Origin: a virus
Lineage: Duplodnaviria; Caudoviricetes
DNA: 64,000 bases
Strand: one strand, 5' to 3'
Virus record (IMG/VR): IMGVR_UViG_3300034059_000003
Span: 1-64,000 of that record
Shown here in pieces: positions 34 through 60,527 of this stretch. The stretch's first letter is position 1. Every line of letters starts with the position of its first letter. The notes beneath the pieces are model-generated. The model saw only the letters and a program-made list of their open reading frames with translations, made no database searches and had not been told where the DNA came from. The position numbers were made by a program, and so were the translations under genes.

Positions 34-75
34 GATTAATTAAGTCTTGAGTGGCTTGTATAACTCAAAAAGATT

Positions 76-268: not shown

Positions 269-320
269 TTTCTCAGGGGTAGGATAAACACAATAATATC
301 CACGACTAACCAAAGATATA

Positions 321-3119: not shown

Positions 3120-3120
3120 T

Positions 3121-4246: not shown

Positions 4247-4256
4247 GGATCTCCCT

Positions 4257-4530: not shown

Positions 4531-4545
4531 TTAATATTCTAAAAT

Positions 4546-19394: not shown

Positions 19395-22300
19395 TTACTT
19401 CCACTGGTTTTCCCACTTATCAACCCACCATTGTTCTGTAATGGCTCCTCCTTTCATTTTACTTGCAAAATCATGAAATGATGATAGATAAGGTATTGAC
19501 CTCATTACTTCATTCCATCCTTTCAATTCACCGTCTTGTGTGAAAGAGTTTTCCGGATCACTACCAATAAGAAGATTCCCTGTAGCAACCATCATATTTG
19601 TTAAACCCTGAGTTGATTTATACATTCTTGCCAAAGCAACTGGTTGTGTTGATGTCTGAGCAATCTGTAACATATCAAGAGGGTTATATTGTTGTGACAA
19701 GTTCATTACAAGATAATTGAACCACCACTTTTTAAATGTATCATCATCATCTTCGTCTCCGAACATCGCAAGATATAACCCATAGAATAATCCAAATGAG
19801 TTAATGGTTATCATTGCATCGATAAGATTCTGTTTTTGTTCGGTTGTCAATGCACTCCATTTATATTCTTTTCCAGACATATTAATAAAACTCAAGACAA
19901 AGTTTATTAATGTTCTCCACCGGCCTTCATTGGATCTTCTTAACCATTCATATACTTCTATCTTTTCACCAGTATTAGGGTCTATTCTTGTTTCATCCAT
20001 CTTTTTATAGGTACCAAGATCTACCTCTTCTCTTTTGCTTCCAAGAGCATTCATTAAAAGGCGGAGGAAATACTTCTTAAACTGGATCATTGCCTTACCC
20101 ATGACAAATATTTCAAGATTGGCTGCCTCTTCCTTCCGGTATCCACCCTGCATTCTCTCATGCACCTTCTTGAGTTTAGCAATCTCATGTGTTGTTAGTT
20201 CAGTTATATTTGAATAAACAGCAACATTTCCCTTTCCGGTCTTTTCCTGACCACGAATTCCACCAACCCATTTAACATCATATATACCTGTTGATTCATC
20301 CTTTACAACATCATATGAATCCCATAATGACTTACCAGTCTTTGGATTCTTTAAATGATGTAACTGAGCAACCATAGTTGTAAGAGAAACATATTCTTCT
20401 GCCTTACTGTGGAAGAAATACATTGATGATTTACTTACTGAAAGATTTCGTGTTGACAATAAAAATCTTCTATTTGTTGCATAATCATAATTATCAGGTA
20501 GATAATTAAGTTTCTTTGAAAGCAACCACATCTTATTTTTATTGAGATCTCCAAACATTGCATCCTTTGTAAAATCACCAAAGTAAATTTTATCAGCAAA
20601 TGTATTATCAGATAATGTAAAGTCTATCGCATCTCCATCAATGTGAGCAAATTTACTTGCAATAGTTCCTTTCAAGGCATCACGATACGTTAATAATTTA
20701 GCTTGGAGTCCATTACCACCACCCTGAAACGGTTTCAACCACATAACTGTAGCACTTGTCCAATTTATAAGTTGTTCTACTATCTTATCAAGATCAACAT
20801 TAAATGTCTTCTTCTCTCCGGTAAATGGATCAGCAATACGACCAATAGTTATTGGTAATCTTGTATATTTCTTTCTGACAACATGGTTTTGTATGTCTCC
20901 TATCAATTTCTTCTCAAGGAAACCTACAGTATTCTCAAACATCGGTTGACCATTACCATGTTTTTTCATCTGTAGAAATATCTTAAGAGCTTGACCAATA
21001 TGAAATACCGGTTCCATATATTGTTTATGTAATGAACTTTTATTAAAAGCATCAAACATAAAAGCAAGATTATGAGTATAATTCTTACTGTTATTGATAA
21101 CAAAATTATCAAGGTATTTTATCGGAATACTCATTCGAACATCATTATAAGCCTCAAATGTATCTTCAACATACCATGTCAAACCTCTCATAGCACGTTC
21201 TTTTATATTCTTTATGGAGAAACGGCCTACAATATTGGCACCAAAAATGTCACCTCTACCTACCTGTTTATTCAATATGCGGGCCCCTTCTTCATAGTTC
21301 ACTTCCTCAAGCGTCTTCATAACCTTTGGAAACCAACCATCATAGTACACCATCTTATCATTGGCTGTCCTGTCAAGATTGAATAAATCTAACCAGGTTA
21401 ATTCTTTACCTTCAATCTTTGTTGCAATCTGATTGAAGAAAGCATTTGGACCAATAAACCATGATGCAAATTTCTGATTTAACCATGTAAGAAGTTTCTT
21501 TTGTTCTTCTGTCAAAGTATTCCATTGTGGATCTGTTGGAATAACAAGTCTCTCTCTGATATATCCAGTCTTTTCTTCTTCTATGAAAGCAAAATGATAT
21601 AGTTCGGCATAATTTATATTTGCTACTCTATCAACACCTCCTCTACGAATCCTGATTTTGCCCTTCATATATTTATCGAGGATAGGTTCGATGTATTTAT
21701 TCACCAATGAAAGATCATCTTCATGTTTCATGGTGTATTTATTCCATTCACCATTTCTAACCTTAACCCAGGTTTGGAATACACCCATATTTACATCACT
21801 GTAGTTGCCCAACCATTCTGTTACAATACCTATATCTTCATTGGGAGATACATCAAGTTGCATACTTGGATCTGCCCTCATAATAGCAATTTCTTCATAT
21901 AATTGAGCAAGACGTTTTCTTGTGTCTTCCGGAAGTTCTTCTATCCTTATCTGTCTTCTTTCTTTCAGCCGGCCAAGGATCAATCTTATTTCATCAACAC
22001 GTTTACGATATTCTTCTTCAGGACTGAATTTAGAATTAACAAGCGATTCAAATAAACTATCATTGGCTTTATCAGTATATTCTGAGATAGAAAATATCTT
22101 CGGACTTTTCTCAACAATTTTTTGATAAACATTCTCATCAATACCGGCATTCTTAAGTGCTTCTCTATCATTTAAGAATGCTTTTATCATATTAAGATAA
22201 GATGAAACCTCAACAAACCGGTCCATATCTTCTTTCTCTCCAAGGAACTGATTCGGAATCCAGACTGTCATCAAGTCACGAAACTTAATATCGGGATACT

Positions 22301-25300
22301 GAAGTTTAAGAAGAAATGCATATATCATTACCTGAAGTTTTGCTCTCTCTCTTTGGTTGTCTGAGATGTATGTATCTTGTAATCCATACATCATTGGTTC
22401 CATTGTTGTTTTTATTCCAAATGCATTACCAGATTTCCAATCCTTTATACTCCATCTACCATCGGCATGACCAATCAAAGCATCCATTGTACCACCGAAA
22501 CCAAGTAAGTCACTCCAAATTGTTACTTCAGGAAGATAAATAATATCCCTCAAGGCTTCTGGGATGTCTTTACTCAATACATTAACACCGGCATGTTTAA
22601 ATACTTTCCTTAATACTTCCGGATCTTCTATCCAAGAGTAATGTTCTATAGGTGTTTTCCCTTCCCCGCGGGATGCAACATTATTTATTTCTTTAAGGAT
22701 GTCTTCGTCTTTTTCTCCAAGATGAAATAATCTATTTGCTGTGCGTTTAAGGAAAAGGTGAAGAATGTTTCCTTTTATCTGGCCGAGTTTAGAATTAAGT
22801 TCCATACGATCTTTATATTGATCGTAATCTTCCATATTCCCTTGTTCAGTGAGTAATTTATGATCATGTGTCCTGTCACCCCATTTAACATCAGCCAGGT
22901 GTTGTCCAAAAGTAATATTAGGATCTATCTTTTTGTTCGTAAACATAGATATGAATCCACCGGCATAATTTGTTATCCTACGGATCTTCTTTGCCATTCC
23001 CTCAACAATATAGAATTGTCCCTCAGTTCCGTCAGGAAGTTTCTCTACTTTAATCTTCTTAGCATTCTCTTTTATATTATCCGCAAGGTCAAGAATGTTT
23101 TTTCTGGTAGTATCTGAATCATTCCTTATCCCGACTTCTACTTCAACTTCATATCCTAACTTGGTGTCCTTATAATAATTACCTGATTGACTTCTATATA
23201 AAATACCTTCTTTTGTAAATGAAGGAGTATGAGGACTATTCAGAATTATCTGTAGGAGATCATTTGAGAACTCTTTTGCAAGAGAAATGAACTCCATAAT
23301 CTTATCAAGGATTCGTTTTAACAATGATCTTTCTTCCTGGGATCTCTTTAATGAATCAATCATTTTTGCAAACTCATCATTCGATAATATCTCAGCAATA
23401 AACTCAAACTGATTTTTCATACCAAGTAGATTCATCGAAGATATTGAATTGATATCTTGGGGATATCCATTTTCAGAAAGGAATTTATCTACTGTTTTCT
23501 TTGCAAAAGGTTTAACAATAAGTTGCCCGGTTGTCTGATCAACATCAAAATATTCATTAATTAACTTCAATATATCCTTACTAAATGATTCATTTTCTAA
23601 CATTCCTGTTACAGTAATACCATGGATCATCTCATGAAAAAGAATCTTATCAACCTGGTCAATATCAATAGGCCCATTATGAATATAAAGATTAACAAGG
23701 TCAAGAACTATTGATCCATCAACAGAATATTCACCATATCTACCAATACCACTAAGTTCTCCAAATTTTATTGTCATTCCCTGTTTTACAATTCTGTCCT
23801 TTAGTGTTGTTAAAAGATTGATTCTCCGTTTACTTTTACTACGAAGTATCATATTATCAATTAAAGTACTGATGGATTCTTCTTCTGAATATAATTTCTG
23901 TACACTTTCAATCTCTTCCGTTATATTATCTTCCTTTATATTCTTGAGGAATTGTTTTGACCCATATATTACTTCTTGATCAGTATCAGAAATATTGTTG
24001 GTTTCAAAATATGACTTGATATTACTTTCATTGGCTTTCAAGAAGAAACTATGTAATGCATTCACATCAACATATATCTGAATACCGTCATACCAAAGTC
24101 TTTCTCTTAAGACCTGAATACCACCAAATTCTTCATTATTTATTTTGCTCTTAAACTCCCGGGCCTCATTTGTGCTATGCTTTCCATAAAGAATACGACC
24201 ACGACCTTTATTGTCATTTCTGAATGGTGTACCATGTTTCAACATCCTTGTCTTGAGATCTATGATAACATGTTCAGTTGCCATAGTAAATTTATCATAG
24301 GAATGTTTTGTAATCGCTTCTTTTACTGGTCTGATAATATAACTGTTATCAAGTTTCTTTATGATCTTACAATATTGTTTATTGACGCGCGTTACATCGT
24401 GGAACTGAGTAAGGCTGACAATATCTCCTTCTTTTAATCCACTGCCATAATATTCAAATTCTTTGGTATTAAAATCAGCAACACGGACGTTATAGATACC
24501 ATTGTTCTTAAAACTTTCATTGATATCAAATCCGTTTTCAAGAACCTCATCAGATGTATTATAGAATTTTATTGTAGAACTACGATCAACAACCTGGTAG
24601 TAAACGATAGGATCTATTGCATTATTAAGACGGAGATAAATTCTTTTCACTCCGGCATAACTACTAACAATAAATCGTGGCATTTCTTTTTGGTCCGGAT
24701 TTGAATAACTTCTATCATAGAAATACTCATTTGTCTTGCCACCATAGAAAGGAAGTGTTTGGCCGTATTCATTTACAAAAGATCCCTTTTTGATTGGTTT
24801 TCCCAACGTTCTGAATATATCAGGAATCATCTCTGAGTTATTTAATACCAATTGGACCATGAAGTCGTCCTGGATCTTACTCCAATTCTCTTCATACTTA
24901 TCCCCGGTGAATTTATCCATCAGTTTATTCAGGAGATTATCAACACTATAGTATAGGTTCTCTGGTAGGATAGTACTATAATTCATTATCCCAAACTTAA
25001 GGCCCCAATTCATTATACCATAACTGACAAACTCACGTTGTAAGTCAGAATAATCAGAGTTACTCTTTGGTTCAGTATTCTTTTTGACAGTATATTTCCC
25101 TGTCTTTTTATTCCAGGATACTTCATACTTATTTAGTTCAAAGAATCCGTTTCGTGCATCAAGGATATCCATCTGATCCATGTTGGATCCACCCTCAAAT
25201 GTTAATTCATATGTCTTGGTGACAGAATTATAAGATTGACCTAATCTCTCAATAAAAGTATTTGAAATAGGATCTCCATCTTCTGTTCTTTCCTTGTTTA

Positions 25301-28300
25301 TATAATTCTTCAGTGCTGTTATCTTACCAATGAAAATCTGATTAACAGCCTTTGGCCCGGTTAAAATTCGTTTCTCATCACCAACAGTATATTCAAATGA
25401 AACATCTTTTTCAATTTTGTATTCCCCTGAGAATATTTCATTTGACATAAGATAGTTGATCAACTCATCTCTTATGACAGATTTTCCTTCTACCTCGTTC
25501 AGCCCAAACTTACCGAGTTGTCTATAAGCCTGGTTGACTATATCTTCAAACTCAGGATAATATTTCTTTATTGAAGAAGTAAGAAGTTCATCAAATTGTC
25601 TTACTCCTTTATAAATTTGAAGTATATGTTTCGACTTTAAAAAGAATTCACTAATATCAAATGGAAATGATGAAACACCAAATGCAGGCAATGTACCATC
25701 TTCTTCTATAACTCCGAAAAGTTCAGTTGCTACATTCTTTATTTTATCGATATCATTTTTTGTTACAGGTAATGTTCGTGCAATCTTTAACCACTGAGCT
25801 AATTTGCCAATTGAATTACCAACATTAGTCATATTCTGGAATGTCTCAATGATATGCATCTGAAACATTAAAGCTTTGGCTGCCTTGTTATTTTTCTTTC
25901 CATCTTCAGAGATGGCATTATCATAGTCATCAATACTATTACCACTACGGATCCCGGTAGATATATTTTGAGGATTTATCTCTGACTCCACTGCTTCATA
26001 TCCGGAAAGTTTTTCTACGATCTGTTTCTTAATCATGTCAAAACTTCTTCCGTTTGCATAATCAAGTATCGCCGGCTGTTGTAAAATATCAACGGTATCA
26101 GTAAGATTTATTCCCAGTGTTCTCAAAGATATAAATGCATGAATTGTCCTCATGTTTATATTGAGAGTAGGTAATGCCAACATTTTTATATTGTCTATCG
26201 CGGCATTAATGAAACCGTCAATAGAAACAAACAAACTCTGGCCGGTATTATCGAACAATGTAAGTTCATCGTATATCCTTAATTCTCCTTTTGAATCCCT
26301 TATTCTGACAATATTATTCTCATCTCTAAGTTTTGGATTTGATTGATTCTCTCCGGTACGCATCATATAAGCAAGGGTCTTTGCGGCATTACCAAAAACG
26401 CCGGTCGCTACAGCTGCGCCAAAGATTGTACTATGAGTATCTATCTGATCATTATAATTTGAGAGATCAAGTTTATTTTCTCTTGGTCTGTAATTCGGAT
26501 TTAATACACGAGTCTTCTGATCCATTATCTCCTTAAGAGGTATTGGAGAAAGCATACTTTCTATATTCTCCTGGTTACTGACAAGATCAAGTAACTCATG
26601 AATAACGGCATTCTTTCTGAAACCAATTTCTTCATAGATATCTTCAAAGTCTTTCGTGTTACGAATGAAAGTCATCCGGCCTTTCTTCTCTTTATATCCA
26701 ATGTATTCACCTCGTTTGTTCTTTGCTCTCTTGATAATGAATAAAGAGTCAACGTCAAAGTCAGATCCATGAAGTCCAACCAGTAAGTCCGGTGCAATAA
26801 TCACATTGATGTTTGGTGTCTTATAGAATCCAACAACTTTTATTGCTACTGCACTATGTATATCAGATGAAGGAATACGGAATCCCAGGAGATCTGGAAG
26901 ATCAAAATAATCCTCTGCATTTTTGCCTTCGGCCAATGCCTGTTTTATAGAGTCTTCATATTCCTTTGGGAGAAGTCCTTCCGGGATTATACACTCTGCA
27001 ACCATCCTACCGGTATCTGTCCTGATATATTTCAGTTTATTCTTTGGTCCGTCACTTACCGGTAATCCATATTTCCTTACTCCAAACTCACTTTGGAGAA
27101 CAAGTTTGGATCCAGGGAAATCAAACTCTACAATACTATCCTTTAAATGACTTGATAAAGCAATGATTACTTTGTCAACGATAGACGGAAAGTTTATACT
27201 TATCTCTGATGACAAGATATCATGTGTATTCTCATTACCTTTTCCTCTCAATAACGATGTGATATTTGTCTTTATCGACCTTTCATCATTGAATTTGGAG
27301 AAGAACAACTCATTACCAAGTCTTGATAATTCACTCAAATGATAATAGATCCTATCAGCTCTCTTTGTATTCTGTGATAAAACACTTGCAAGATATATTA
27401 ACTGTGATGGTTGACTTGTCTTGCCTGATATCTTTGACTTTGGATCCATCTGGATTCTGTACTGATCATTATTGATATCAAATAACATTGAAGGATCAGC
27501 GGCATAATTCTCTGATAATACACTTTCGAATGGAGCTGCAGACTCAGGAATACCAATTTTTATTGCTGATCTGAATACGGCTTCATCGGCATTATTTCTA
27601 CGCATATTTGCCAGAAGTATACCAAGAGAAGGAAACTCCTCAATAAGTTCATCAGATAAAACAATAGATGAATATTTTATTCCTCTCGCTACCCCTTCTT
27701 CTGATACAGAATAAACTACGGGCTTTAATATCTTATGTAAAGAAAATTCTGTAGCAAAACCTCCGTTACGAAGTTCTTCAAATCTTTCAGGAGTCATAAA
27801 TCCCTGTCCATCCCAAATGTTTATATTCTCCTTGAATTTCTCCATTAGGATAGGTAATTTGGCCTTTTCTTCATCTGTTTTGAGTACAGCATCAAGTCTG
27901 GCTTCGATATCCTTAAATCCTTTTATTTGGTCTTCTATGACAAGGAACCTCGCTTTTTCTTTCATACCAAAGGTTTTGTTTACTAAACCCTTTGACCCGG
28001 GGGCAGTGGCTAAAGAGAAACGACGCATGACATCTTCCTCATTAACGAACTGATTGTTTTCGCCAAGTATAATCTGATTTAAGAAAAATGAATTGACATA
28101 GTTATTTGCAATAAAAGAGTGTGTCAATGGTAATATCTGTTCCATGGTCCAGTTATATGAACCATCAGGTTTCATCGACCTGGACTCACTTCTTCCATAA
28201 TGTTTAGAATTTCTGAATGAATCAAGATCAACTTTGTCAGGAGAGACAATCTTTTCGAGATTCTTATTTGAGAAAATCTCTTTGTCAAGAGGAACCCTGT

Positions 28301-31300: not shown

Positions 31301-34300
31301 GATCAGATATCTTCAAAGGTTCTTTTACATATTTCTCCTTTGTTATATTCAACTCTTCTCTTGATAATCCTTGTATATCACTACCTGCATTACCCCAATC
31401 AATAAGAACCTGTTCAATCTTTGCTATATTCTCCTGATCATCAAGTCTCTTTGATTCCTTATCAATAAATGAACTATAAGAAGGAAGTTCGACACCAATA
31501 GCTTTTGCTTCTTCTTGCATGTCTTTCCATACAGTCTTAATGTAATTGATATATTCAGATGTTGAGGTTTCTTCTGCAAAAAGACTTTTACTTTCTGATG
31601 ATATAACCACACGTTTCTTTCCATTACGAAAGAGATTTGTTTTATGTGATATAGAGAATGGTAATTTATTATTTGCTCTTGCAAGAACATTCATTCTTTT
31701 CTGCACTATTCCTTCTCCGGCGATCAAACCAGTATCATAAACATATTCCTTTTCATCTTCATTCTTGCGGTTTGTCATTAAGATATAACCACCATTACTT
31801 TTTGGATGCTCTTTAAACTCATAACTCGTATTCGGATCAGTCTTCTTATTCTCACCGAGATACTCCCACATTGCGTCTTCATCAATAACTTCTTTCTTTG
31901 TCCTGCCCGGACCATAGAAAGCAGGTATCAATGTATTGGATAAGTCATATAATAAATCAAATTGCTCTTTCGTTAATATAGGAAAACCTCTTTCATCTCT
32001 TTCTTCGAGATAAGTATTGTATGAATACCTATTTACTTTTGCCGGAACAATTTCATCATCGATAACATCAAAGTTTCTCTTGAACCTTTTTATCAATTCG
32101 TTGGTTTTTGGATCTCCCCAGGTACCAATACCTTCAGATTCGAGTTTCTTTACCGTATCTCTGAATTCAATTATTGGTTGTAAGATACTGTCAGTATTTC
32201 TTATCTTCCTTGCATTAAGACGGATAAATTGACTCTCAGCTCCTTCTTCTTTGCCGGCTCTCATAGTCTTACGTTCAATATCAAGATAAGGGACACCGGG
32301 AGTATGGTTACCAAGACGGTCATCATTACGAGCATATATCTTAACTGAGAACTCAAGATTTTCATTGGCAAATGTCTGTTTGACTTTTGATATTAATGAA
32401 GAAAGAAATCCAGGTCCGGAAGAAGTGATATCATCTGAATATTTATATGAAAGAGGTTGTGCTTTTTGTATTACTCCTTCAGCAAGAATAGTCGGTCCAT
32501 CTTTTATCTGAAGAATACCGGTATTACCTTGAGATAATCTGTTTGAAAGTTCCTTACCATCTTGAGTTTTTGCTGCACTCATCTTATATAATAAGGTTTT
32601 ACCAAAGTCAGTTGATAAAAGCTCTTTCTCTGAGAGAACACCTATCACACTCCATAAATCATTCTCAAGAGGTGTATCATCAATATTAAGATGTTGTCCA
32701 ATTATATGAACTTCATATTTCTTAACATTGGCATTCCAAACTTTGATGTATTTTACTTTTGATCCTGTTCTTACTGGAGCCATTTTAATTTCTTCCCATG
32801 ATTGGGAAATAGGTTTTATTGGATAGTAAGATGGATATTCTACATCATGATATTCAGTATTACCAGATCCTACCTCAACAAAAGTTGCATTATCTGTTGG
32901 AGTATTCTTATCACTCAATGGTTCTTCTTCTCTTGCATCAGTCTCACTTTGTTGTGAAGCGATATCTGAAGGATCTCCTTTTTCAATATTGACGATCTGT
33001 GGTGTAGATATCTTAACACCTTTCATGTCATCTCCCAAAATATTCAACTCAAAGGCAAGACGGTTGGTATATTCCTGAGCAATTTCTTTATTACGAGATT
33101 CATTATTCTCTTTCTTTATTTCGTCAATAGTATATTTCCATGCATCAGGATCCATGTATGACTTGATGAAGATATATGATCTGGCCCGGGACAACGCAGT
33201 GTACATTCCCTCGTTGTATTTCCGATTAAATTCAAAGTCAACTGGATTTATATCGATATAAACTTCATCATAAGAAAGACTTGCAACTTCATGATAAAAC
33301 ATTACAGGTACACCTGTCTTTTCATACTGTCTTTTAAGAACAGGATTACTTACAACAACCACCCGGCTGCGATTATTATTTTTCTTATGAACCTCAAGTT
33401 GGTCAAATAGTCTCTGTTGTATATTGGATACATGAACACCATCAGCCGGCGCACCAATATCTGCAGAAGCTGTACCAAGAAATGACTTTATTTTACCTGG
33501 ATAATCAAGGAATGAATTTTGTGCATGCAATACGGATGAGTTACCGCTACGGAACACAGAAGTCAAAGGATTAAACTCACGAATATTTGACATCTCATGC
33601 CTGAAAGAATTTATTGCGGGAAATGCATCATCAAGACTTGCTACTTGTGAAGGATCTCCGAGAACATATATTCGTATTGGAATTGCCCTTGTTTCATTTG
33701 CTGAAACAATTCTTTCGGCAAGAGTATGAAGTTCTTCAGCATTTAATCTGGCAACCTCATCTATTATAACAAGTTTATTGTTTTCATCTTTCAACATCTC
33801 ATCAGTAAGATTACTAACAAGCATTGAGTTCTTCACTCCAGGAAGACTTTTCTTTAAAACTTCAAGAGCATTTTCATGTGTTGATAAGGCAATAAGAGAT
33901 TCATGAGATATCCCAAGTAAATCAGGAAGATAGTTTGCCATTAGATCCGTTTTGCCAGTATTATGAACAATAAAATCATTAGCAACATAGTTATGATAAG
34001 GAAATTGCATTATTATATCATATGTATCTTCATATTTATACTTTTCTATTGATATTATTTTTTCTTCGATAATTTTTGAAAATCTCATATTTGTTATATT
34101 ATTATAACCATGTAATTTATCGTGTTCTTGTTTTGTTATAATAACAAGATTATCTAAATCATCATTTATGGGATTTTCATCTTTATGATGAACAATTAAT
34201 TTTGGATCAAGAAATTTATAAATAGATGAACTATTAGAATTAGTTTTTAATTCATTAATAAATTGATTTACACCAATATTATTCATTTTTGCTTCAACAA

Positions 34301-37300
34301 CTAATCTACAATATGGGAGTCTACCATAATCTTTATTATTAACTATTTTAGTATATTTATTTGGATGATAAATAATCCCATAAATTATTTTTCTTCTTAA
34401 TCTTTTTGAAAGGTCTCGACCAGTTCCTTTTTTAAGGTCACGAAGAAATACAATATCACCAATTTTTAATTCTGATAACTTTTTAAAACCATCAACACTT
34501 TGTCCAATGGTTCCTTTAGGAACTTTAAATGGATGTTCTATTGTAACACATATATTTCTACCAGAATCTACTGTAACTTTATATGTTTGTTTTTTACCAC
34601 TATAAATAATATCTATAATTTTATTATATCCAATATAGCCATCTAATAAACTTAATGTTTCAATTGGAATAATTTTATCCCAAGGTCTCCCACTTATTCC
34701 TTTTACTTTTATATTATTAAATTTATAATAAGCATATTTAACCGAATTGATTCTACCACTTACTCTATTTTTTGTTTTAAATGGTAATAATACATCCCCA
34801 GACAAACAACCGGCCAATCCTTTTATATAATACCATCCCCGAAACTTTTCTTCTTTCTTTTCTATAGGAGAATTCATTTCTACAACGGCCTCTCTTAATG
34901 TGATATGTTGTTGATTGTTTGGAGATAACTTTTTCTCTTTTATAACTGCAGATTCAAGACCTATCATTTCCTGAATAGTAATCTTAGACGTAAGCCTGTC
35001 TTTTAACCTTGATAGACCCATAATCTCGATATGCGCTTTTATAAGATCAGAGAAATCATCTTTATTTATATTTGGGTATACAAGATCAACATTATTTTGA
35101 ACAGCATCGAGCAACTGGAACACATCTTTATTACGGAAGAATCTATCAATAGGACTTATCTTTTCTGTCTGAACACGGAATCTATCTATCTGTATTTCTA
35201 TTAATCTATCAAAAGCACGAAAAGGACTTTTCTTATATGCCTTAAGGTCATCACTGACACCAGATGTTATTCCTTTCTCTTCAAGTTTTGTCCACTTAAC
35301 GTAAACATCAATAAAATTATTAATTTTATCAAACTCTATTTTTTTAAGGAGATCAGATAGTCTCTTAACTCCATTATTTGCATCTTTAACTCTTGATATT
35401 ATCTTCTCAATAAATATTCCATCAAAAGAATAGTCTGTTTCATTAAAGAATGCCGACTTAGCAGTCTCAAGAATATTGTCGAGTTCCGTCTTTCCTATAA
35501 TTTCTGAGACAGCATTAAATAAATCCTGATTGTATACAGAATAAGATTTTTTTTCACGATTAATTGATATACCAATAGCATTGAAAAGAGATCCGGAATA
35601 CGATAACCTTGTTCTTTTATCAAGTGATTTTCTTGATTCTCCATTTTCAAAGGCCTTATTTCTTATTGCCTTTAGTTTTGGGAGTACTTCATCAATTGAT
35701 TCAATATATCCTTTAAATTCACTTGTTGTTAATAGTTTCTTTCTTCCTGGTAATGAATAAACTTTTTTCCTGTCTTCGAGTTTTCTCAAAATATCATCAA
35801 CATCATCAACCTGATCAAATACATCTTTATTACCATTATATGAAAGAAGAAGATCTTTTGCTTTATCTACAGGAGTATCTGCAAATTCACGTTGAAATTT
35901 GCGATATGCTTTTCTACGTGATGACATCTGTTTTTTATCTGTCTTAAATTGTTGGCCAGATTGTTCTGACATATTTTTTATTTCAGATAAAGAATTCTCA
36001 GCATCAGTTTGATCCTGACTCTTCTGTATATAATTATCTAACCAAACCTGGTCCGATTCTCTTTGTTTTGGATTAAAGTTAGAATTTGGAATTTTATTCC
36101 CGGTAGGAAATCCATCTACTGTTTCCCATACTTCTTCTGTATTGGTATTAAGTCTTTTCTGTCTTTCCGGAACTTGTTTTGATGCACGATCAACAGATTC
36201 GCGTCTCTTTGAAATAAGATTACCAACTTTATCAATTTCTTCTGCAGAATAAACTATTCCATCAGAAAGATGTGATCTTATAGTCCCAATAATATCTGAA
36301 AGATTCCTCTTGCCTTTTGCAGCATCTTCCATTGTATTATTAAGTTCTGCTTTCTTATACGCTGCCTTACCTCTATCAAAATAATAGTTATACCTGGCAC
36401 CAAAAACATTCGCAGTCTTTGTCCCATTGGTTACAGACTGAGAATATATTGGAGAGAATGGATCTTCGGGACCTTCAATATAAAGAAACTCATCCCTATC
36501 ATATTGTGCTTTTAATTTATCATTTGATGTTGCTTTTGAATCCTTATTTACTTCTTCAAAGTTCTTAAGAACATTATTATATTGATCTCTCTCAAGTTTA
36601 AATTCATCATAAAGTTTCTCTCTTGTCTTTTTGTTGAGTAAGTTATCAGATAACTTCTTACTATCAGCAATTAATCTCTTTACATCTTCTTTCTGTTTAT
36701 CTGATAGCTTTTCATTAGAGAGATATTCTTCATACATATTTCTTTTTACTTCTTCAGCAAAAAGAGTTTTCATTGCTACCTGTTTGAATTGTGTTTTAGT
36801 TCTATCACCGGAAAAATCTTCAGCATCAGAAACCTGAGTCCTTGCATTTTCAAAAGCCTTCCTTATTGGTGTAAGATCGGATTTTGTAAATTTCTTATCG
36901 TAACCAAGTTTTGCAAGTTCTTCAGGTATTTGTAAATCTCTTTGTAATAAAAGATCATCAACCTCATCAAGTGAACTCATTAAATCATCGGTTGCATACC
37001 AATAATATAATCTTGTAAGAGCATCATTATTAATTGTATTTAGATGAAGATCATCGGCATTTATCGTTGCAACCATTGCCTCATCATACAGAAATTTATC
37101 ATTGACTGTATGCATAAACATACGATTGACGGCATCAAGATCCACTTCAGTCTTACCATTTTTATTGTAATACGATTCAACATCTTTTTCAACTATAGAT
37201 CCATCTGGTTGTGTCTCTTCTACTTTATTGACAAATTTCTTATATGGTTTGGTTACATGATCAACATACCATTTATCATAACCACTCATATTCCTTTTAA

Positions 37301-38552
37301 GATGATCATAAAGTTCTTCTTCTTTTTCTATCTCAGCTTTTTCTCCTAATCCTTCTCTATATCCTCCAATGCTACCAAATAAACCTCCAACTAAAGAACC
37401 AAGAACAATATTCTTTTGTCCTTCTGTTGTGAATAGATTATCAACCCATTCTGAAGCAAGACCAAGAGTATAGTCATCAAGATCCTGACCATATGATTCT
37501 TTTTTCTTGTTATATGTTTGTAGTGCATACTGCATTCCTTCTTCCCAAGGACCTTCAGTACTCATCGCAAGACCAGCATCAGTTAATGATTTTTTGAATA
37601 GGTTTATATCTTCAGATGCAATTCTCCCGGACCTTACGCCGGCTCTTAAATCTTCCGCAGTCTTTCCAACCCGACCAAACATAAATCTACTCTGTATATA
37701 GTTTGGAACAAGAAGAACACCAAGATTACCATTGAATACATTCGCAGCGCCTTCAGAAACTTTTGATTTTACCTTATCCTGTGATGCCGGATCAAGATCA
37801 GTATATTGCATTCCATATTCATTAAATGCAAGATTATTCCGTTCTGTATCTTGGAAATCTTTTGCCTCAAAACCAGCCTCTCCAATAGAGTTTAATACTG
37901 TAGATCCATACACCTTTGCTTTTTGTACCATCTGTGCAGTTAAACCAAAAGCCTTTGAAGATGCCGACGCAAGGGCACCAACGCCAGCGCCAGTTATATA
38001 TGCTGATCCAAGAAAAGCAAGAGCATCAAAACCATCATCAAACCAGAATCCAGGATCTTTCATCTGTTGAAGAAGATTGCCATTACGACCTTGCCATGTT
38101 CTATATATTGGAAATTTCTCTCTTAATCCTTCATCGGCTTTACTCATTGCATTAACAAAACCATTATCCCAAATGACAGATGGATCGGCTGTTTCTGGAT
38201 CAGAGAGATAGTCAACACCAAATGATATAGCACCGCCAATATGACCAATATTCTGACCAACCTTGGGAACTAAACTTGCCCCACGAGAAACAAGACCACT
38301 TGTGAATTTACCAAAGAAAGGTTGTGCTGCAGCGGACATACTCTGTTCATCCCATACTGGTTGACCTTGACCGACAAGTTTTTTATATGGAGTTCTCCAT
38401 GGTTCAAAACGAAAATAACCGTCACCGGTTGTATCTTTCATAATATCTGAATCTATTTTCGGTTGTTCCTTTACTGGAAGATTTGATGAATCAAGTTCTG
38501 GTGTAGTAAATGAATCTTCATCAAATCCAACCCAAGTTCTTTTATTTGCCAT
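19395..38552 (-). CDS. Giant virion (ejected) polyprotein: SF1 helicase (intein-split) + zincin + two-barrel virion RNA polymerase + zincin + PD-(D/E)xK nuclease
   Basis: One uninterrupted ORF (~6,385 aa from ATG38552, MANKRTW). RNAP motifs WDGQGF, GFRIP and GSDFDVDSL; helicase motifs I-VI; HEAFH and HEMIH; GGTMDAL..IKDWKSG. Confidence 0.88.
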   Translation of the reverse strand: MANKRTWVGFDEDSFTTPELDSSNLPVKEQPKIDSDIMKDTTGDGYFRFEPWRTPYKKLVGQGQPVWDEQSMSAAAQPFFGKFTSGLVSRGASLVPKVGQNIGHIGGAISFGVDYLSDPETADPSVIWDNGFVNAMSKADEGLREKFPIYRTWQGRNGNLLQQMKDPGFWFDDGFDALAFLGSAYITGAGVGALASASSKAFGLTAQMVQKAKVYGSTVLNSIGEAGFEAKDFQDTERNNLAFNEYGMQYTDLDPASQDKVKSKVSEGAANVFNGNLGVLLVPNYIQSRFMFGRVGKTAEDLRAGVRSGRIASEDINLFKKSLTDAGLAMSTEGPWEEGMQYALQTYNKKKESYGQDLDDYTLGLASEWVDNLFTTEGQKNIVLGSLVGGLFGSIGGYREGLGEKAEIEKEEELYDHLKRNMSGYDKWYVDHVTKPYKKFVNKVEETQPDGSIVEKDVESYYNKNGKTEVDLDAVNRMFMHTVNDKFLYDEAMVATINADDLHLNTINNDALTRLYYWYATDDLMSSLDEVDDLLLQRDLQIPEELAKLGYDKKFTKSDLTPIRKAFENARTQVSDAEDFSGDRTKTQFKQVAMKTLFAEEVKRNMYEEYLSNEKLSDKQKEDVKRLIADSKKLSDNLLNKKTREKLYDEFKLERDQYNNVLKNFEEVNKDSKATSNDKLKAQYDRDEFLYIEGPEDPFSPIYSQSVTNGTKTANVFGARYNYYFDRGKAAYKKAELNNTMEDAAKGKRNLSDIIGTIRSHLSDGIVYSAEEIDKVGNLISKRRESVDRASKQVPERQKRLNTNTEEVWETVDGFPTGNKIPNSNFNPKQRESDQVWLDNYIQKSQDQTDAENSLSEIKNMSEQSGQQFKTDKKQMSSRRKAYRKFQREFADTPVDKAKDLLLSYNGNKDVFDQVDDVDDILRKLEDRKKVYSLPGRKKLLTTSEFKGYIESIDEVLPKLKAIRNKAFENGESRKSLDKRTRLSYSGSLFNAIGISINREKKSYSVYNQDLFNAVSEIIGKTELDNILETAKSAFFNETDYSFDGIFIEKIISRVKDANNGVKRLSDLLKKIEFDKINNFIDVYVKWTKLEEKGITSGVSDDLKAYKKSPFRAFDRLIEIQIDRFRVQTEKISPIDRFFRNKDVFQLLDAVQNNVDLVYPNINKDDFSDLIKAHIEIMGLSRLKDRLTSKITIQEMIGLESAVIKEKKLSPNNQQHITLREAVVEMNSPIEKKEEKFRGWYYIKGLAGCLSGDVLLPFKTKNRVSGRINSVKYAYYKFNNIKVKGISGRPWDKIIPIETLSLLDGYIGYNKIIDIIYSGKKQTYKVTVDSGRNICVTIEHPFKVPKGTIGQSVDGFKKLSELKIGDIVFLRDLKKGTGRDLSKRLRRKIIYGIIYHPNKYTKIVNNKDYGRLPYCRLVVEAKMNNIGVNQFINELKTNSNSSSIYKFLDPKLIVHHKDENPINDDLDNLVIITKQEHDKLHGYNNITNMRFSKIIEEKIISIEKYKYEDTYDIIMQFPYHNYVANDFIVHNTGKTDLMANYLPDLLGISHESLIALSTHENALEVLKKSLPGVKNSMLVSNLTDEMLKDENNKLVIIDEVARLNAEELHTLAERIVSANETRAIPIRIYVLGDPSQVASLDDAFPAINSFRHEMSNIREFNPLTSVFRSGNSSVLHAQNSFLDYPGKIKSFLGTASADIGAPADGVHVSNIQQRLFDQLEVHKKNNNRSRVVVVSNPVLKRQYEKTGVPVMFYHEVASLSYDEVYIDINPVDFEFNRKYNEGMYTALSRARSYIFIKSYMDPDAWKYTIDEIKKENNESRNKEIAQEYTNRLAFELNILGDDMKGVKISTPQIVNIEKGDPSDIASQQSETDAREEEPLSDKNTPTDNATFVEVGSGNTEYHDVEYPSYYPIKPISQSWEEIKMAPVRTGSKVKYIKVWNANVKKYEVHIIGQHLNIDDTPLENDLWSVIGVLSEKELLSTDFGKTLLYKMSAAKTQDGKELSNRLSQGNTGILQIKDGPTILAEGVIQKAQPLSYKYSDDITSSGPGFLSSLISKVKQTFANENLEFSVKIYARNDDRLGNHTPGVPYLDIERKTMRAGKEEGAESQFIRLNARKIRNTDSILQPIIEFRDTVKKLESEGIGTWGDPKTNELIKRFKRNFDVIDDEIVPAKVNRYSYNTYLEERDERGFPILTKEQFDLLYDLSNTLIPAFYGPGRTKKEVIDEDAMWEYLGENKKTDPNTSYEFKEHPKSNGGYILMTNRKNEDEKEYVYDTGLIAGEGIVQKRMNVLARANNKLPFSISHKTNLFRNGKKRVVISSESKSLFAEETSTSEYINYIKTVWKDMQEEAKAIGVELPSYSSFIDKESKRLDDQENIAKIEQVLIDWGNAGSDIQGLSREELNITKEKYVKEPLKISDLNNLLSFDNAGVHKTLTLPLKMSGIYGVNELGKNINSNLEQLEDILGTKLEDIIRTRIQIKLDEPISKEDAKKDSIKKGFENTYDKIQEKIKNRKKRLMRATPGMDLGKELTLSEARSLLAKFIPSITTQGKDVIHFAEKIVIDEIAGDNAYGVFHDEVIWAMEKNGSTFEKIIRHEAFHKIFNEYITKNEQDLIVKSFKKQFPEYKDKGIIEIEEQLAIKFQDYQSKKLSRINEVLKRFFNWLASTFGFINLNLKNFDRFFETIESGYFITTKENSAGITRSMKNIINLYGNDNDDFQGALETYRNARAIIQQEFYDVYEKGFAGYPITRREVKDITIGNLKNDHLIIKDNFDNMIVQQDLAEGEILNIARELRYYGKAIENYDRIIEDLYPNWSLDEADEIVVNMDISTEEILVQYEEDDETDGGISQHTIESDEVNWEVKKQSMAVKDFLSNIPIDNNRFMNWREAYVRTLQLFEGLQPENDRFIDQLRKAWENLGKHHRTEFLLNKIIELHTIASGNIYGERGETLGNNMKFVTEDMFVISDEELVNVYGEAGAMQNGATVDKRRSNESTREFIIRIAKTNNVSEEEIIGHFKKFQAIDSYKSLVNLFNNQKQKNLYIIEKTHTSGGTYAVGYIPGSYIGPHKSIGSLLNENIRNYFPDKRSLEKFVKDWLRPNIEKYKSNPYEFIKVFLKEMGMGSIANSIPNTNVQQIYYDVEGFFTRPGSGAIYRIGEVEEITDEDTGEVMKVPMTIGLLLDEEGKMSGNLSKLMSVSSAYVRATSVRDVKGKRKYIWSPTSWANNILFNIANNKILKTGNLTLSLPQYLTTEYFKKNIFLSGKNKIHDIVDSDGIKFKDYTGKITGIKQSKENEGDFILRGFVAGFLDRIRYSKSGHERYFQFVYPNERENVFGAEVNVLTHAEIRVAISEAIRQFNSEPVLSGIKQNNTGRFINFRLLEKALKGRDIVAKPLSETEIDKYSQVVESLLSEEAKKLAERVIRNRVPLDKEIFSNKNLEKIVSPDKVDLDSFRNSKHYGRSESRSMKPDGSYNWTMEQILPLTHSFIANNYVNSFFLNQIILGENNQFVNEEDVMRRFSLATAPGSKGLVNKTFGMKEKARFLVIEDQIKGFKDIEARLDAVLKTDEEKAKLPILMEKFKENINIWDGQGFMTPERFEELRNGGFATEFSLHKILKPVVYSVSEEGVARGIKYSSIVLSDELIEEFPSLGILLANMRRNNADEAVFRSAIKIGIPESAAPFESVLSENYAADPSMLFDINNDQYRIQMDPKSKISGKTSQPSQLIYLASVLSQNTKRADRIYYHLSELSRLGNELFFSKFNDERSIKTNITSLLRGKGNENTHDILSSEISINFPSIVDKVIIALSSHLKDSIVEFDFPGSKLVLQSEFGVRKYGLPVSDGPKNKLKYIRTDTGRMVAECIIPEGLLPKEYEDSIKQALAEGKNAEDYFDLPDLLGFRIPSSDIHSAVAIKVVGFYKTPNINVIIAPDLLVGLHGSDFDVDSLFIIKRAKNKRGEYIGYKEKKGRMTFIRNTKDFEDIYEEIGFRKNAVIHELLDLVSNQENIESMLSPIPLKEIMDQKTRVLNPNYRPRENKLDLSNYNDQIDTHSTIFGAAVATGVFGNAAKTLAYMMRTGENQSNPKLRDENNIVRIRDSKGELRIYDELTLFDNTGQSLFVSIDGFINAAIDNIKMLALPTLNINMRTIHAFISLRTLGINLTDTVDILQQPAILDYANGRSFDMIKKQIVEKLSGYEAVESEINPQNISTGIRSGNSIDDYDNAISEDGKKNNKAAKALMFQMHIIETFQNMTNVGNSIGKLAQWLKIARTLPVTKNDIDKIKNVATELFGVIEEDGTLPAFGVSSFPFDISEFFLKSKHILQIYKGVRQFDELLTSSIKKYYPEFEDIVNQAYRQLGKFGLNEVEGKSVIRDELINYLMSNEIFSGEYKIEKDVSFEYTVGDEKRILTGPKAVNQIFIGKITALKNYINKERTEDGDPISNTFIERLGQSYNSVTKTYELTFEGGSNMDQMDILDARNGFFELNKYEVSWNKKTGKYTVKKNTEPKSNSDYSDLQREFVSYGIMNWGLKFGIMNYSTILPENLYYSVDNLLNKLMDKFTGDKYEENWSKIQDDFMVQLVLNNSEMIPDIFRTLGKPIKKGSFVNEYGQTLPFYGGKTNEYFYDRSYSNPDQKEMPRFIVSSYAGVKRIYLRLNNAIDPIVYYQVVDRSSTIKFYNTSDEVLENGFDINESFKNNGIYNVRVADFNTKEFEYYGSGLKEGDIVSLTQFHDVTRVNKQYCKIIKKLDNSYIIRPVKEAITKHSYDKFTMATEHVIIDLKTRMLKHGTPFRNDNKGRGRILYGKHSTNEAREFKSKINNEEFGGIQVLRERLWYDGIQIYVDVNALHSFFLKANESNIKSYFETNNISDTDQEVIYGSKQFLKNIKEDNITEEIESVQKLYSEEESISTLIDNMILRSKSKRRINLLTTLKDRIVKQGMTIKFGELSGIGRYGEYSVDGSIVLDLVNLYIHNGPIDIDQVDKILFHEMIHGITVTGMLENESFSKDILKLINEYFDVDQTTGQLIVKPFAKKTVDKFLSENGYPQDINSISSMNLLGMKNQFEFIAEILSNDEFAKMIDSLKRSQEERSLLKRILDKIMEFISLAKEFSNDLLQIILNSPHTPSFTKEGILYRSQSGNYYKDTKLGYEVEVEVGIRNDSDTTRKNILDLADNIKENAKKIKVEKLPDGTEGQFYIVEGMAKKIRRITNYAGGFISMFTNKKIDPNITFGQHLADVKWGDRTHDHKLLTEQGNMEDYDQYKDRMELNSKLGQIKGNILHLFLKRTANRLFHLGEKDEDILKEINNVASRGEGKTPIEHYSWIEDPEVLRKVFKHAGVNVLSKDIPEALRDIIYLPEVTIWSDLLGFGGTMDALIGHADGRWSIKDWKSGNAFGIKTTMEPMMYGLQDTYISDNQRERAKLQVMIYAFLLKLQYPDIKFRDLMTVWIPNQFLGEKEDMDRFVEVSSYLNMIKAFLNDREALKNAGIDENVYQKIVEKSPKIFSISEYTDKANDSLFESLVNSKFSPEEEYRKRVDEIRLILGRLKERRQIRIEELPEDTRKRLAQLYEEIAIMRADPSMQLDVSPNEDIGIVTEWLGNYSDVNMGVFQTWVKVRNGEWNKYTMKHEDDLSLVNKYIEPILDKYMKGKIRIRRGGVDRVANINYAELYHFAFIEEEKTGYIRERLVIPTDPQWNTLTEEQKKLLTWLNQKFASWFIGPNAFFNQIATKIEGKELTWLDLFNLDRTANDKMVYYDGWFPKVMKTLEEVNYEEGARILNKQVGRGDIFGANIVGRFSIKNIKERAMRGLTWYVEDTFEAYNDVRMSIPIKYLDNFVINNSKNYTHNLAFMFDAFNKSSLHKQYMEPVFHIGQALKIFLQMKKHGNGQPMFENTVGFLEKKLIGDIQNHVVRKKYTRLPITIGRIADPFTGEKKTFNVDLDKIVEQLINWTSATVMWLKPFQGGGNGLQAKLLTYRDALKGTIASKFAHIDGDAIDFTLSDNTFADKIYFGDFTKDAMFGDLNKNKMWLLSKKLNYLPDNYDYATNRRFLLSTRNLSVSKSSMYFFHSKAEEYVSLTTMVAQLHHLKNPKTGKSLWDSYDVVKDESTGIYDVKWVGGIRGQEKTGKGNVAVYSNITELTTHEIAKLKKVHERMQGGYRKEEAANLEIFVMGKAMIQFKKYFLRLLMNALGSKREEVDLGTYKKMDETRIDPNTGEKIEVYEWLRRSNEGRWRTLINFVLSFINMSGKEYKWSALTTEQKQNLIDAMITINSFGLFYGLYLAMFGDEDDDDTFKKWWFNYLVMNLSQQYNPLDMLQIAQTSTQPVALARMYKSTQGLTNMMVATGNLLIGSDPENSFTQDGELKGWNEVMRSIPYLSSFHDFASKMKGGAITEQWWVDKWENQWK
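22420..22780 (-). other. PD-(D/E)xK nuclease domain within the giant protein (approximate bounds)
   Basis: KGNILH (motif I), PEVTIW (E), GGTMDAL (D), IKDWKSG (DxK), QVMIYAFLL. Confidence 0.7.
23622..23636 (-). other. Zincin motif HEMIH (second metallopeptidase-like domain)
   Basis: KILFHEMIHGIT followed by NQFEFIAEILSN (third-ligand Glu region). Confidence 0.7.
26748..26762 (-). other. RNA polymerase catalytic motif DFDVD
   Basis: GLHGSDFDVDSLF is a variant of the DxDxD loop of two-barrel RNAPs (DFDID in crAss-like virion RNAP), preceded by GFRIP. Confidence 0.85.
30762..30776 (-). other. Zincin motif HEAFH (first metallopeptidase-like domain)
   Basis: KIIRHEAFHKIF followed by EIEEQLAIKF. 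Confidence 0.7.
33180..34830 (-). other. SF1 (RecD/Dda-like) helicase domain within the giant protein, interrupted by an intein
   Basis: KGLAG|TGKT (I), LVIIDEV (II), VLGDPSQ (III), SVFRS (IV), degenerate motif V (YHEVASLSYDEV), MYTALSRA (VI). Confidence 0.8.
33960..34808 (-). mobile_element. 283-aa intein with HNH homing endonuclease
   Basis: Block A CLSGD (Cys1 at 34806-08), block B VTIEHPF, block F TYDI, block G IVHN|T. Internal IVHHKDENPINDDLDNL..ITKQEHDKLH. Visibly more AT-rich than its flanks. Confidence 0.92.
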
Positions 38553-40863: not shown

Positions 40864-40873
40864 TATAGTAAAA

Positions 40874-42442
40874 TTAACAAGACTTATATCTACGTTTTAA
40901 TAATTTATTTACTTTAGATGTAATCCTTCCACCAAGCTCAAATTCCTCTTCTTCATCTGATTCAGGAGAAAAGAATTGTACAGCTGAAGGAAGTGTTGAG
41001 TTACCAGTTACTGATCCAAATTCTTCTGTCGGAAGTTGAAAAGCAGGTACTTCTTCCACAGTGTTTTTTCTGTCCTTCCATATATCCTGATATCCCTGAA
41101 GAATGTTCATGTATTGTTTACTTGCTCTATCACTTGCTGCCATACGTTTTTCGTCTGCAGATTGTATTCCGAGTTGAGTGGCAAGATTTGCTGAATATGA
41201 TGAAACGGCATTTGATCTTGCTGCTCTATTTGCTGCAAGAGCATTTTCTTGTTCAATCCCTATCTGTGTGTTTATTTTATTAACAGCATTCTGACTCTGT
41301 GCATCAATAATATTTGCTCGATTTTCTATTTCGGCATTTTGTGATTGTACATTGGAAACGAAATCTCCGATTGTCTCTGCTTCAAGAGCTCCGATATTAC
41401 CAAGATTATTCATATACATACGTGGATTTAATCTTCTTAATCGTTCTCTGGTATTACCAAATGTACGATTAATTTTACGAATGCCTCCCTCAGTACTTAT
41501 TGGTGTTCTTTTCGTTGCTACAAACTGTGTTCGTGGATAATTTACTTCTTCAGGTTTTGATACAAGATTCTGAACAAGACCGAGACCACTTGATAAAATT
41601 GAAAGATTTCCTTTATCTCCTAACCAAGTATTAACAGCTCCACCACCAGCCATGATGTTTTCATTATTATATTCCTTACTAAGATCATCACTCATTTCTT
41701 CAAAAGGTACCTGTGATATTTTTCTTGCAGTATCATTCCATTTGTCACCAGATCTTCTTTCGAATTTTCTATCTCTTGTTTTTAATACTGAAGAAACACT
41801 TCTTCCAATATCTGATTTCTTCAGTGGAACATTTCCTCCAAATCGCATCATGATTTCAGGTGTTATTTTTATTTTTTCTGAATGTACGATATCTCCGGTC
41901 CTTGACTCTCCATTTTCAACTTCAGCAATGCCGATATTTATTCCACCCTGGCTATGTGGAAATCCTTTATAATCGGTACGTCTTGATAAACGTTTTAAAT
42001 TACCTCCTCCTTCAGCAATAACAGTATCATATACCTGTCTTTCTTTTCCTATTGCCGGTTTATATGAATTAGCTATCTCCGCTTTTTTCTTTGCTTTTTC
42101 TTCAGCACTTCCACCTATTGCACCAAGACCAAAACCAGCAACGGCACCTATAAGTGTTCCCCATCCAGGAGAAATACTTGTTCCTGTCATTGCACCAGAT
42201 ACAGCACCAGAAGCAGCATTATCAAGCCAACCACCATTTGAATACAACTCAAGAATATCAGAATCTGATAATTCGCCACCAACCTCTAACTTTTTAAATT
42301 TTCTTTTTGCCATTCGTGCAAAATTAGCCATTGCACGAACATTAACATTCTTTGAATGTAATGCCTCAGTAGTAGTTTTACCTGTACGTTTTTTATATGC
42401 GGTAAACTTTCCTTTGTTTTCTGGTTTTATCTTTATACTCAT
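40874..42442 (-). CDS. crAss-like internal virion/cargo protein with glycine-zipper membrane segment
   Basis: IKIKPENKGKFTA..K.TG N-terminal motif, G.PHSQGG...AEVENGE, glycine zipper, repeated x-x-x-GG motifs. Confidence 0.7.
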   Translation of the reverse strand: MSIKIKPENKGKFTAYKKRTGKTTTEALHSKNVNVRAMANFARMAKRKFKKLEVGGELSDSDILELYSNGGWLDNAASGAVSGAMTGTSISPGWGTLIGAVAGFGLGAIGGSAEEKAKKKAEIANSYKPAIGKERQVYDTVIAEGGGNLKRLSRRTDYKGFPHSQGGINIGIAEVENGESRTGDIVHSEKIKITPEIMMRFGGNVPLKKSDIGRSVSSVLKTRDRKFERRSGDKWNDTARKISQVPFEEMSDDLSKEYNNENIMAGGGAVNTWLGDKGNLSILSSGLGLVQNLVSKPEEVNYPRTQFVATKRTPISTEGGIRKINRTFGNTRERLRRLNPRMYMNNLGNIGALEAETIGDFVSNVQSQNAEIENRANIIDAQSQNAVNKINTQIGIEQENALAANRAARSNAVSSYSANLATQLGIQSADEKRMAASDRASKQYMNILQGYQDIWKDRKNTVEEVPAFQLPTEEFGSVTGNSTLPSAVQFFSPESDEEEEFELGGRITSKVNKLLKRRYKSC

Positions 42443-42450
42443 GACTGTAA

Positions 42451-42738: not shown

Positions 42739-42739
42739 A

Positions 42740-60475: not shown

Positions 60476-60512
60476 TTTTCCTGTCTTAAATTTATACTTT
60501 GAATCTTCATAT

Positions 60513-60520: not shown

Positions 60521-60527
60521 TATCATT

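Follow-up and report, generated by a model that had tools for sequence, protein, structure and literature searches.

The window analysed here, the 64,000 nucleotides at positions 1 to 64,000 of the IMG/VR virus record IMGVR_UViG_3300034059_000003 (Caudoviricetes), carries on its minus strand a single gene of about 19 kb that takes up 22% of a genome known from an 85,939-bp source contig, in which no terminal repeat was found. This gene closes the virion module and is downstream of the gene for the muzzle protein. Very probably it encodes a fused form of the crassvirus virion ‘transcription block’ in one polypeptide, the three proteins concerned being known separately as gp67, gp66 and gp65 of phage phi14:2 and as gp47, gp50 and gp49 of phage crAss001. 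The module order begins with a gp67/gp47-like part, made of a helical domain and a superfamily 1 (SF1) helicase, followed by a zincin-like module and a gp66/gp50-type two-barrel RNA polymerase. Its gp65/gp49-like part comes last: after a second zincin-like domain stand a RecB-like nuclease and the conserved C-terminal block.

One stop-free frame occupies 19395..38576 of the minus strand and would give 6,393 amino acids (aa) from its first ATG at 38576, from which residue numbers are counted throughout. The start at 38552 is Met-9 of that longer form and coincides with the N-terminus common to relatives, MAKxxRTW. Because the relatives and the database entry P0002 (6,385 aa) begin at Met-9, 19395-38552 is the better gene model. 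At the stop probability per codon given by the gene's own base composition (p = 0.082), the natural logarithm of the probability of 6,393 codons without a stop is -550; the other two minus-strand frames of the gene hold 422 and 868 stops. Nine relatives align with the giant protein end to end at 28-53% identity, with conservation continuous across all junctions, and in the relative L001 a 6,045-codon open reading frame (ORF) was read directly as DNA in an IMG/VR contig. A sequence-only reading of this DNA had described one 19-kb ORF carrying, in order, a Gly/Ala-rich segment, an SF1 helicase, an HExxH motif, the polymerase motif DFDVD, another HExxH and a PD-(D/E)xK nuclease; the frame proves to be kept in many independent relatives, and all of the listed features were found in that order.

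The same reading had proposed that several cargo genes are fused here, and comparison with the split orthologues bears this out. The family alignment was compared in windows (hhalign profile comparison) with the six phi14:2 and crAss001 proteins named above, and five collinear matches to the three proteins were found within the one continuous ORF (Table 1), which also occupies the same location downstream of the muzzle. A whole-family hhalign comparison with crAss001 gp49 gave a meaningless two-column match; the true C-terminal match was seen by the windowed comparison. No hhalign counterpart was found in the six reference proteins for aa 480-1240, 1830-2540, 2650-3480, 4380-4930 and 5480-5900, and Pfam searches with eight slices of the giant returned nothing above noise. 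The fusion itself is already described. A passage in Drobysheva et al. (10.1101/2020.03.07.982082), citing Yutin et al. 2018, reports that some crAss-like phages have the three proteins fused as a single huge polyprotein, and a review names crAss RNA polymerase genes of up to ~6000 aa as a hallmark (PMC10136315). The giant is a further, well-resolved case, to which the present analysis adds an exact intein, a module map with natural split points and independent support for a cysteine pattern.

Table 1. Features of the giant gene and its upstream neighbours (window coordinates), and the hhalign matches of the giant protein.
Feature	Residues (aa)	Coordinates	Strand	Evidence or remark
Whole gene		19395..38552	minus	6,385 codons + stop; conserved N-terminus, database copy P0002
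N-terminal all-helical domain	70-480	37137..38369	minus	shared with phi14:2 gp67 and crAss001 gp47
Hydrophobic Gly/Ala-rich segment	185-203	37968-38024	minus	inside the N-terminal domain
Helicase N-extein end, first half of Walker A (KGLAG)		34809..34859	minus	motif comparison with relatives
HNH intein, 283 aa	1257-1539	33960..34808	minus	C1257 to H1538-N1539; Thr1540 at +1
SF1 helicase C-extein	1540-1830	33087..33959	minus	Walker A second half TGKT, Walker B DE, GDPxQ, YTAxSRA-type motif VI
First zincin-like module	2540-2725	30402..30959	minus	invariant HExxH at 2601, invariant E2640; homologous to gp47 C-terminal HEAFH region
RNA polymerase core	3466-4384	25425..28181	minus	tblastn, hhalign, Foldseek, VIA-align
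Catalytic DFDVD	3939-3943	26748-26762	minus	three Asp invariant in 10 relatives
Second zincin-like module	4923-5250	22827..23810	minus	invariant HExxH at 4981, invariant E5058; homologous to gp65 aa 190-465, HEIMH at 245
RecB-like PD-(D/E)xK nuclease	5255-5480	22137..22814	minus	D5365, D5379-W-K5381, Q5415xxxY5419
C-terminal conserved block	5865-6365	19482..20984	minus	hhalign to gp65 and gp49 C-termini
Upstream context, same strand		38542..47839	minus	muzzle, 522-aa and 773-aa genes; positions held by cargo genes in crAss001 and phi14:2
Crassvirus muzzle gene, 1,699 aa		42740-47839	minus	Pfam crAss_MUZ PF25731 E 1e-145; tblastn to phi14:2 g071
522-aa gene		40874-42442	minus	two genes upstream of the giant
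773-aa gene		38542-40863	minus	between the 522-aa gene and the giant
hhalign match 1	70-479			gp67 59-456 (E 6e-25) and gp47 45-468 (E 1.5e-10)
hhalign match 2, including the first HExxH	2543-2650			gp47 2061-2160, including HEAFH
hhalign match 3	3466-4384			gp66 839-1658 (aligned to aa 3466-4174) and gp50 968-2047 (to 2309 in one comparison)
hhalign match 4, including the second HExxH	4923-5246			gp65 190-465, including HEIMH
hhalign match 5	5865-6365			gp65 975-1402 and gp49 875-1236

For the polymerase, a tblastn search with the giant matches the ‘putative RNA polymerase’ of crAss001. The hhalign probability is 99.2% to gp50 and 98.9% to gp66 aa 1011-1658, and lies at 97-99% over gp66 aa 839-1658 and gp50 aa 968-2309. 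The homology spans both barrels, the connector, the bridge helix and the trigger loop of gp66 (aa ~840-1660), the virion RNA polymerase whose crystal structure is PDB 6VR4 (10.1101/2020.03.07.982082). An AlphaFold model of aa 3440-4460 has a mean predicted local distance difference test score (pLDDT) of only 65; the sole Foldseek match below 1e-3 is 6vr4_A (E 4.5e-12), and VIA-align places 6vr4_B at Z 19.4 (root-mean-square deviation 3.9 A, 491 residues), with the next chain at Z 5.8 and plant RDR2 at Z 5.0. The double-psi beta-barrel (DPBB) polymerase, whose missing folds had been named in advance as the outcome that would speak against an RNA polymerase here, is recovered in the model through this match to 6VR4.

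The N-terminal domain is modelled (AF2, aa 40-520) as a bundle of long helices with a pLDDT of 84. The model has no PDB match above helical-bundle noise (best Z 6.2). In BFVD a structural protein of phi14:2 ranks first (E 6e-9), and further crAss-like proteins match too. Weaker BFVD matches of the same model (E ~0.01-0.03, probability 0.9-0.98) are to the N-termini of otherwise unrelated, large phage virion proteins with lysozyme-like, RelA/SpoT or polyvalent-protein domains. Going by these matches, the helical domain may be a common delivery or packaging module.

Relatives of the giant occur in several states of fusion. A search with the protein body found 16 giants of 4,990-6,835 aa in JGI, ENA and Logan assemblies. 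When the helicase C-extein was searched exhaustively, 103 cluster representatives were recovered, and in almost every case the protein is a giant with the helicase at aa ~1150-1700; database proteins are counted here as representatives, each standing for a sequence cluster. When 115 proteins were scanned with hidden Markov models (HMMs) of twelve blocks, ~19 appeared as full fusions (5,570-6,695 aa), ~33 as fusions of a gp67-like part with the polymerase (about 4,000-5,400 aa) and ~15-20 as stand-alone gp67-like proteins with helicase (2,200-2,900 aa). A word-based search for shorter helicase-bearing proteins had returned none, a null that reflects the sensitivity limit of that search, since the exhaustive search then found the split forms. 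In the same block scan, the relative P0100 (3,658 aa) shows the helicase, the first HExxH module, the nuclease and the C-terminal block with no detectable polymerase core; either its polymerase is encoded separately or its module order differs.

Projected onto the giant, the termini of the shorter relatives fall at aa ~2545-2560, ~2723-2741 and ~4783-4840. These positions come from BLAST extrapolation, mafft --add having misplaced terminal residues. As mapped on the alignments, these ends are natural module boundaries, and each HExxH stands ~45-200 residues downstream of such a split point. Genomic contexts of relatives were taken from two IMG/VR loci.

The SF1 helicase, overall aa ~1240-1830, is matched by Pfam Viral_helicase1 (23.1 bits against a cut-off of 21) and by AAA_30, and a PDB profile search gives weak RecD, Pif1 and AAA matches (E 0.03-0.06). 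Its motifs (Walker A, Walker B, GDPxQ and the Arg-containing YTAxSRA) are invariant across the aligned relatives. In the giant, Walker A is split: GLAG is followed by Cys1257, the start of 283 residues that run to His-Asn1539, and then by TGKT. Nine aligned relatives read KG(L/N)(A/S)G[TS]GKT without interruption, and the insertion at this site is absent from all 113 other related proteins. The insert bears the marks of an intein, namely a block A Cys, a block B TxxH (TIEH), a terminal His-Asn, a Thr at +1 and an HNH endonuclease at aa ~1459-1490; the last has a PHROG HNH match at 4e-6, and a PDB search shows similarity to the solved gp41-1 (8e-4) and DnaB inteins. From these marks and its exact placement, we regard the 283-aa insert as an established intein. 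Its GC content is 23.1% against 33.9% for the gene, and the GC dip at 34-36 kb arises because the intein is GC-poor.

The sequence-only reading was right about the helicase, as motifs and Pfam attest, but overlooked the intein that splits its Walker A. The helicase would be functional only after self-excision of the intein rejoins GLAG to TGKT as the Walker A loop, and the intein itself would be a selfish, lineage-specific insertion and no part of the machine. A second intein was noticed in the terminase large subunit TerL (1,081 aa; contig 74764-78009, minus strand, outside the window), at ~aa 314-674. It is of the LAGLIDADG type (Pfam LAGLIDADG_3 5e-15; Intein_splicing 36.2 bits), which brings the genome to at least two inteins, each with another type of endonuclease. 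Among crAss-like phages, the Delta and Zeta groups have been reported to contain inteins (PMC7886860).

In both zincin-like modules the HExxH is invariant in 10 relatives, and so is the downstream Glu, in keeping with how zincins are described in PMC5512222. The region of gp65 to which the second is homologous has been annotated as zincin-like (10.1101/2020.03.07.982082). The word ‘peptidase’ is accordingly a motif-level call joined to homology with that region, and the earlier claim of peptidases in the chain stands to this extent and lacks a Pfam peptidase match. The first HExxH region has a weak Atlas lead (0.92) to polyvalent-protein domain families. A four-sequence profile of the part comprising the second zincin-like module, the nuclease and the C-terminal block gave no match in the PDB, and single-sequence PDB searches gave only inteins and noise. 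For the nuclease, a PD-(D/E)xK enzyme toward the C-terminal side had been predicted and is supported by its motif residues, by a PHROG exonuclease match (5.9e-6) and by an Atlas neighbourhood (0.94) in which 29 of 30 matches fall in PF12705 clusters. PDDEXK domains have been found in some large transcription-block proteins by Yutin et al. (PMC7886860). Neither for the helicase nor for the nuclease could a counterpart be detected by Pfam or hhalign in gp67, gp65, gp47 or gp49.

Cysteines are distributed in a way that follows the fusion. The spliced chain has 2 Cys in 6,110 extein residues, against 69 expected from the rest of the phage proteome (P ~ 3e-27), and full fusions in other phages have 0-6 Cys each, with none in five of them. 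Among split or half-fused relatives, 36 of 40 carry a Cys within their last eight residues, often as their sole Cys. In phi14:2 the sole Cys of gp67 is its last residue, in gp66 Cys occurs at 3 and 2179 of 2,180 and nowhere else, and in gp65 at 3 alone; crAss001 gp47, gp50 and gp49 follow the same terminal-Cys pattern. The cysteines thus stand where two block proteins meet and are gone where the genes are fused. Because they occur at the facing ends of unfused relatives and are missing from fused ones, the modules are probably kept linked in order, by the peptide bond here and by disulfides in split phages. This pattern of linkage suggests one ejected chain rather than early cleavage, and if the linkage is true it bears on how a protein of ~700 kDa is threaded through a podovirus tail. 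No paper on such terminal cysteines, or linking disulfides to gp66, was found in the literature searched.

What such a chain might do is suggested by its split counterparts. The proteins gp65-67 and gp47/49/50 are virion proteins (10.1101/2020.03.07.982082; PMC10172136), and cargo must unfold partly for passage through the tail (10.1101/2020.03.07.982082; PMC10172136). The early transcripts are made by gp66, which in vitro prefers single-stranded DNA templates (10.1101/2020.03.07.982082). Virion presence together with early, rifampicin-resistant transcription has been reported for phi14:2 and crAss001 only (10.1101/2020.03.07.982082; PMC10172136), and by analogy with these phages we infer packaging, ejection and early transcription by the giant. 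It would be made late and packed in the capsid, and the chain would be driven through the tail together with the DNA or before it, after which its polymerase would transcribe early genes. The three modules would travel as one thread, to be separated maybe only after entry, here possibly by the zincin-like domains. The nuclease may serve in DNA-end processing or in an attack on host DNA.

The helicase may supply the single-stranded template that gp66 prefers in vitro, and is a candidate answer to the question, raised by phi14:2, of how a polymerase with this preference works on a duplex genome. In its most specific form, which is improbable as a whole, the chain would be packaged and ejected uncut with the N-terminus first, the spliced helicase would open the duplex genome in cis and feed the polymerase, and the zincins would cut after entry, replacing the reduction of junction disulfides in split phages. 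If this single-thread arrangement were true, it would explain how transcription of a duplex genome can begin with a polymerase that in vitro uses single-stranded DNA only.

Several observations weigh against this fused and threaded transcription block or against parts of it. The source is a metagenomic contig, and the phage is known from sequence alone. The helicase and nuclease are undetected in phi14:2 and crAss001, and their roles can therefore not be borrowed from those models. No Pfam peptidase family matches either HExxH region, in the whole chain or in slices. The nuclease match to Pfam PDDEXK_1 (E 0.0015, 18.9 bits) is under the cut-off of 22, and the Lys of its D-x-K is missing in two distant relatives. 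For the intein, Pfam Intein_splicing (2e-8, 34.7 bits) falls just under its cut-off of 35.8, and HNH_3 reaches 22.9 against 24.8. The disulfide tether is read from cysteine positions only; the 522-aa protein encoded upstream ends in a Cys without visible partner, and the 773-aa protein and the N-terminus of the giant are Cys-free.

The alternative that survives best, to which we give a little less than an even chance, is a classical polyprotein whose own zincin-like domains cut the chain during or soon after head assembly, so that the virion holds three or four proteins, none of them travelling as one chain. The invariance of both HExxH motifs with their downstream Glu, and the position of each just downstream of the relatives' split position, favour such cutting, and Iyer et al. 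2017 propose zincin-like peptidases as the likely processors, by autoproteolysis, of injected multidomain ‘polyvalent’ proteins (PMC5512222). However, no peptidase family is matched, the sequence reveals no cleavage site, and the terminal cysteines that face each other in unfused relatives suggest linkage rather than separation as the state preserved in the virion. Host targets or the cell wall could instead be what the zincins act on, as proposed for gp65 (10.1101/2020.03.07.982082).

A second alternative leaves the fusion in place and concerns the helicase and nuclease. Together they could be a unit of the RecBCD/AddAB type, injected for counter-defence or host takeover, which degrades host or competitor DNA or processes the genome end and is a passenger without a role in transcription; we regard this as possible and lean away from it. 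In its favour, end-processing enzymes work on just this logic of an SF1 helicase combined with a RecB-family nuclease. Nonetheless, the two lie ~3,500 residues apart on either side of the polymerase, and the helicase occupies a constant position in over 90 gp67-like or fused proteins, which makes it look old and integral, not swappable. Further points speak for the passenger unit: phi14:2 and crAss001 lack both domains and still transcribe, polyvalent proteins often bundle anti-restriction functions with ‘jump-start’ enzymes (PMC5512222), and the PDDEXK domains of other transcription-block proteins (Yutin et al., PMC7886860) fit as well. The weakest alternative, that the long frame is an assembly chimera or a set of adjacent genes merged through sequencing errors, has the metagenomic nature of the contig on its side and is excluded with near certainty, because the stop-free end-to-end architecture is kept in some 19 further cluster representatives (28-53% identity) taken from JGI, ENA and Logan assemblies, some on contigs of 86-101 kb, the L001 frame is present at the DNA level, conservation spans the junctions and chance is excluded by the probability given above.

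Judged by its virion genes, the phage is a distant crassvirus. Its capsid, portal and terminase genes match crAss-type PHROGs, and its major capsid protein shares 35-37% identity with the capsid proteins of phi14:2, DAC15 (37% for these two) and several uncultured gut crAss-like phages. A megablast search against GenBank phages found no close DNA relative of the giant gene. The muzzle protein has extra C-terminal FN3-like repeats and, at aa 1506-1697, a Fibrobacter succinogenes major domain (PF09603, E 5e-31); from the domain matches, these additions appear to equip the tail tip with a host-type carbohydrate-binding or adhesin element. The 522-aa neighbour has a glycine-zipper segment at aa 76-116 (weak Pfam matches), and its sole Cys is its very last residue. 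BLAST comparison of it and of the 773-aa neighbour with phi14:2 g068-g070, and with the genes that precede the giant in the relatives L001 and L002, gave no similarity. At window 58094-63728 (minus strand), inside the tail module, a 793-aa protein has a glycosyltransferase N-terminal half (PHROG 13126, E 1e-28) and adjoins a collagen-like tail-fibre gene.

The map has a practical side. A gene that makes up more than a fifth of its genome and is near-unmatched in standard libraries can now be read module by module, and exact intein boundaries together with natural split points are what anyone expressing parts of such giants needs.

Set beside phi14:2, the fused transcription block is alike in order and in parts. 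The module order of the giant follows the gene order g067-g066-g065, and these genes stand consecutively after the muzzle and small virion genes, as the giant does. Homologous in the two are the N-terminal domain, the polymerase core with its DFDxD motif, the gp65 zincin-like region and the C-terminal block. Phi14:2, however, makes three chains of 1,797, 2,180 and 1,421 aa, whereas here there would be one spliced chain of ~6,100 residues. The giant also has the SF1 helicase, the first HExxH module and the RecB-like nuclease, which are undetected in gp67 and gp65, carries an intein and lacks junction cysteines.

The likeness to crAss001 takes in gp47, matched by the N-terminal domain and the first HExxH module, gp50, matched by the polymerase, and gp49, matched by the C-terminal block; together gp47, gp50 and gp49 amount to ~6,100 residues, the size of the spliced giant. 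In contrast to the single gene described here, crAss001 uses three, with gp47 on the opposite strand and no helicase or nuclease detectable in them, and the identity of the polymerase cores is only ~22%.

A wider comparison is with polyvalent proteins, including the N4 virion RNA polymerase with its fused zincin-like peptidase (PMC5512222). These too are very large multidomain proteins delivered with the DNA, and they combine a ‘jump-start’ polymerase and nucleic-acid enzymes with interspersed HExxH-plus-Glu modules that are proposed to process the chain (PMC5512222). The N4 enzyme is T7-like, whereas the polymerase of the giant is of the two-barrel QDE-1-like type, and membership in polyvalent-protein domain families amounts here to the weak Atlas lead for the first HExxH region. 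Finally, the intein resembles known P-loop inteins (DnaB, TerL, gp41-1) in its Cys1, TxxH, terminal His-Asn and +1 nucleophile, and likewise in its site within the most conserved motif of an ATPase, its homing endonuclease and a base composition richer in AT than that of the host gene. It differs from them in its host site, which here is the helicase of a virion polymerase polyprotein.

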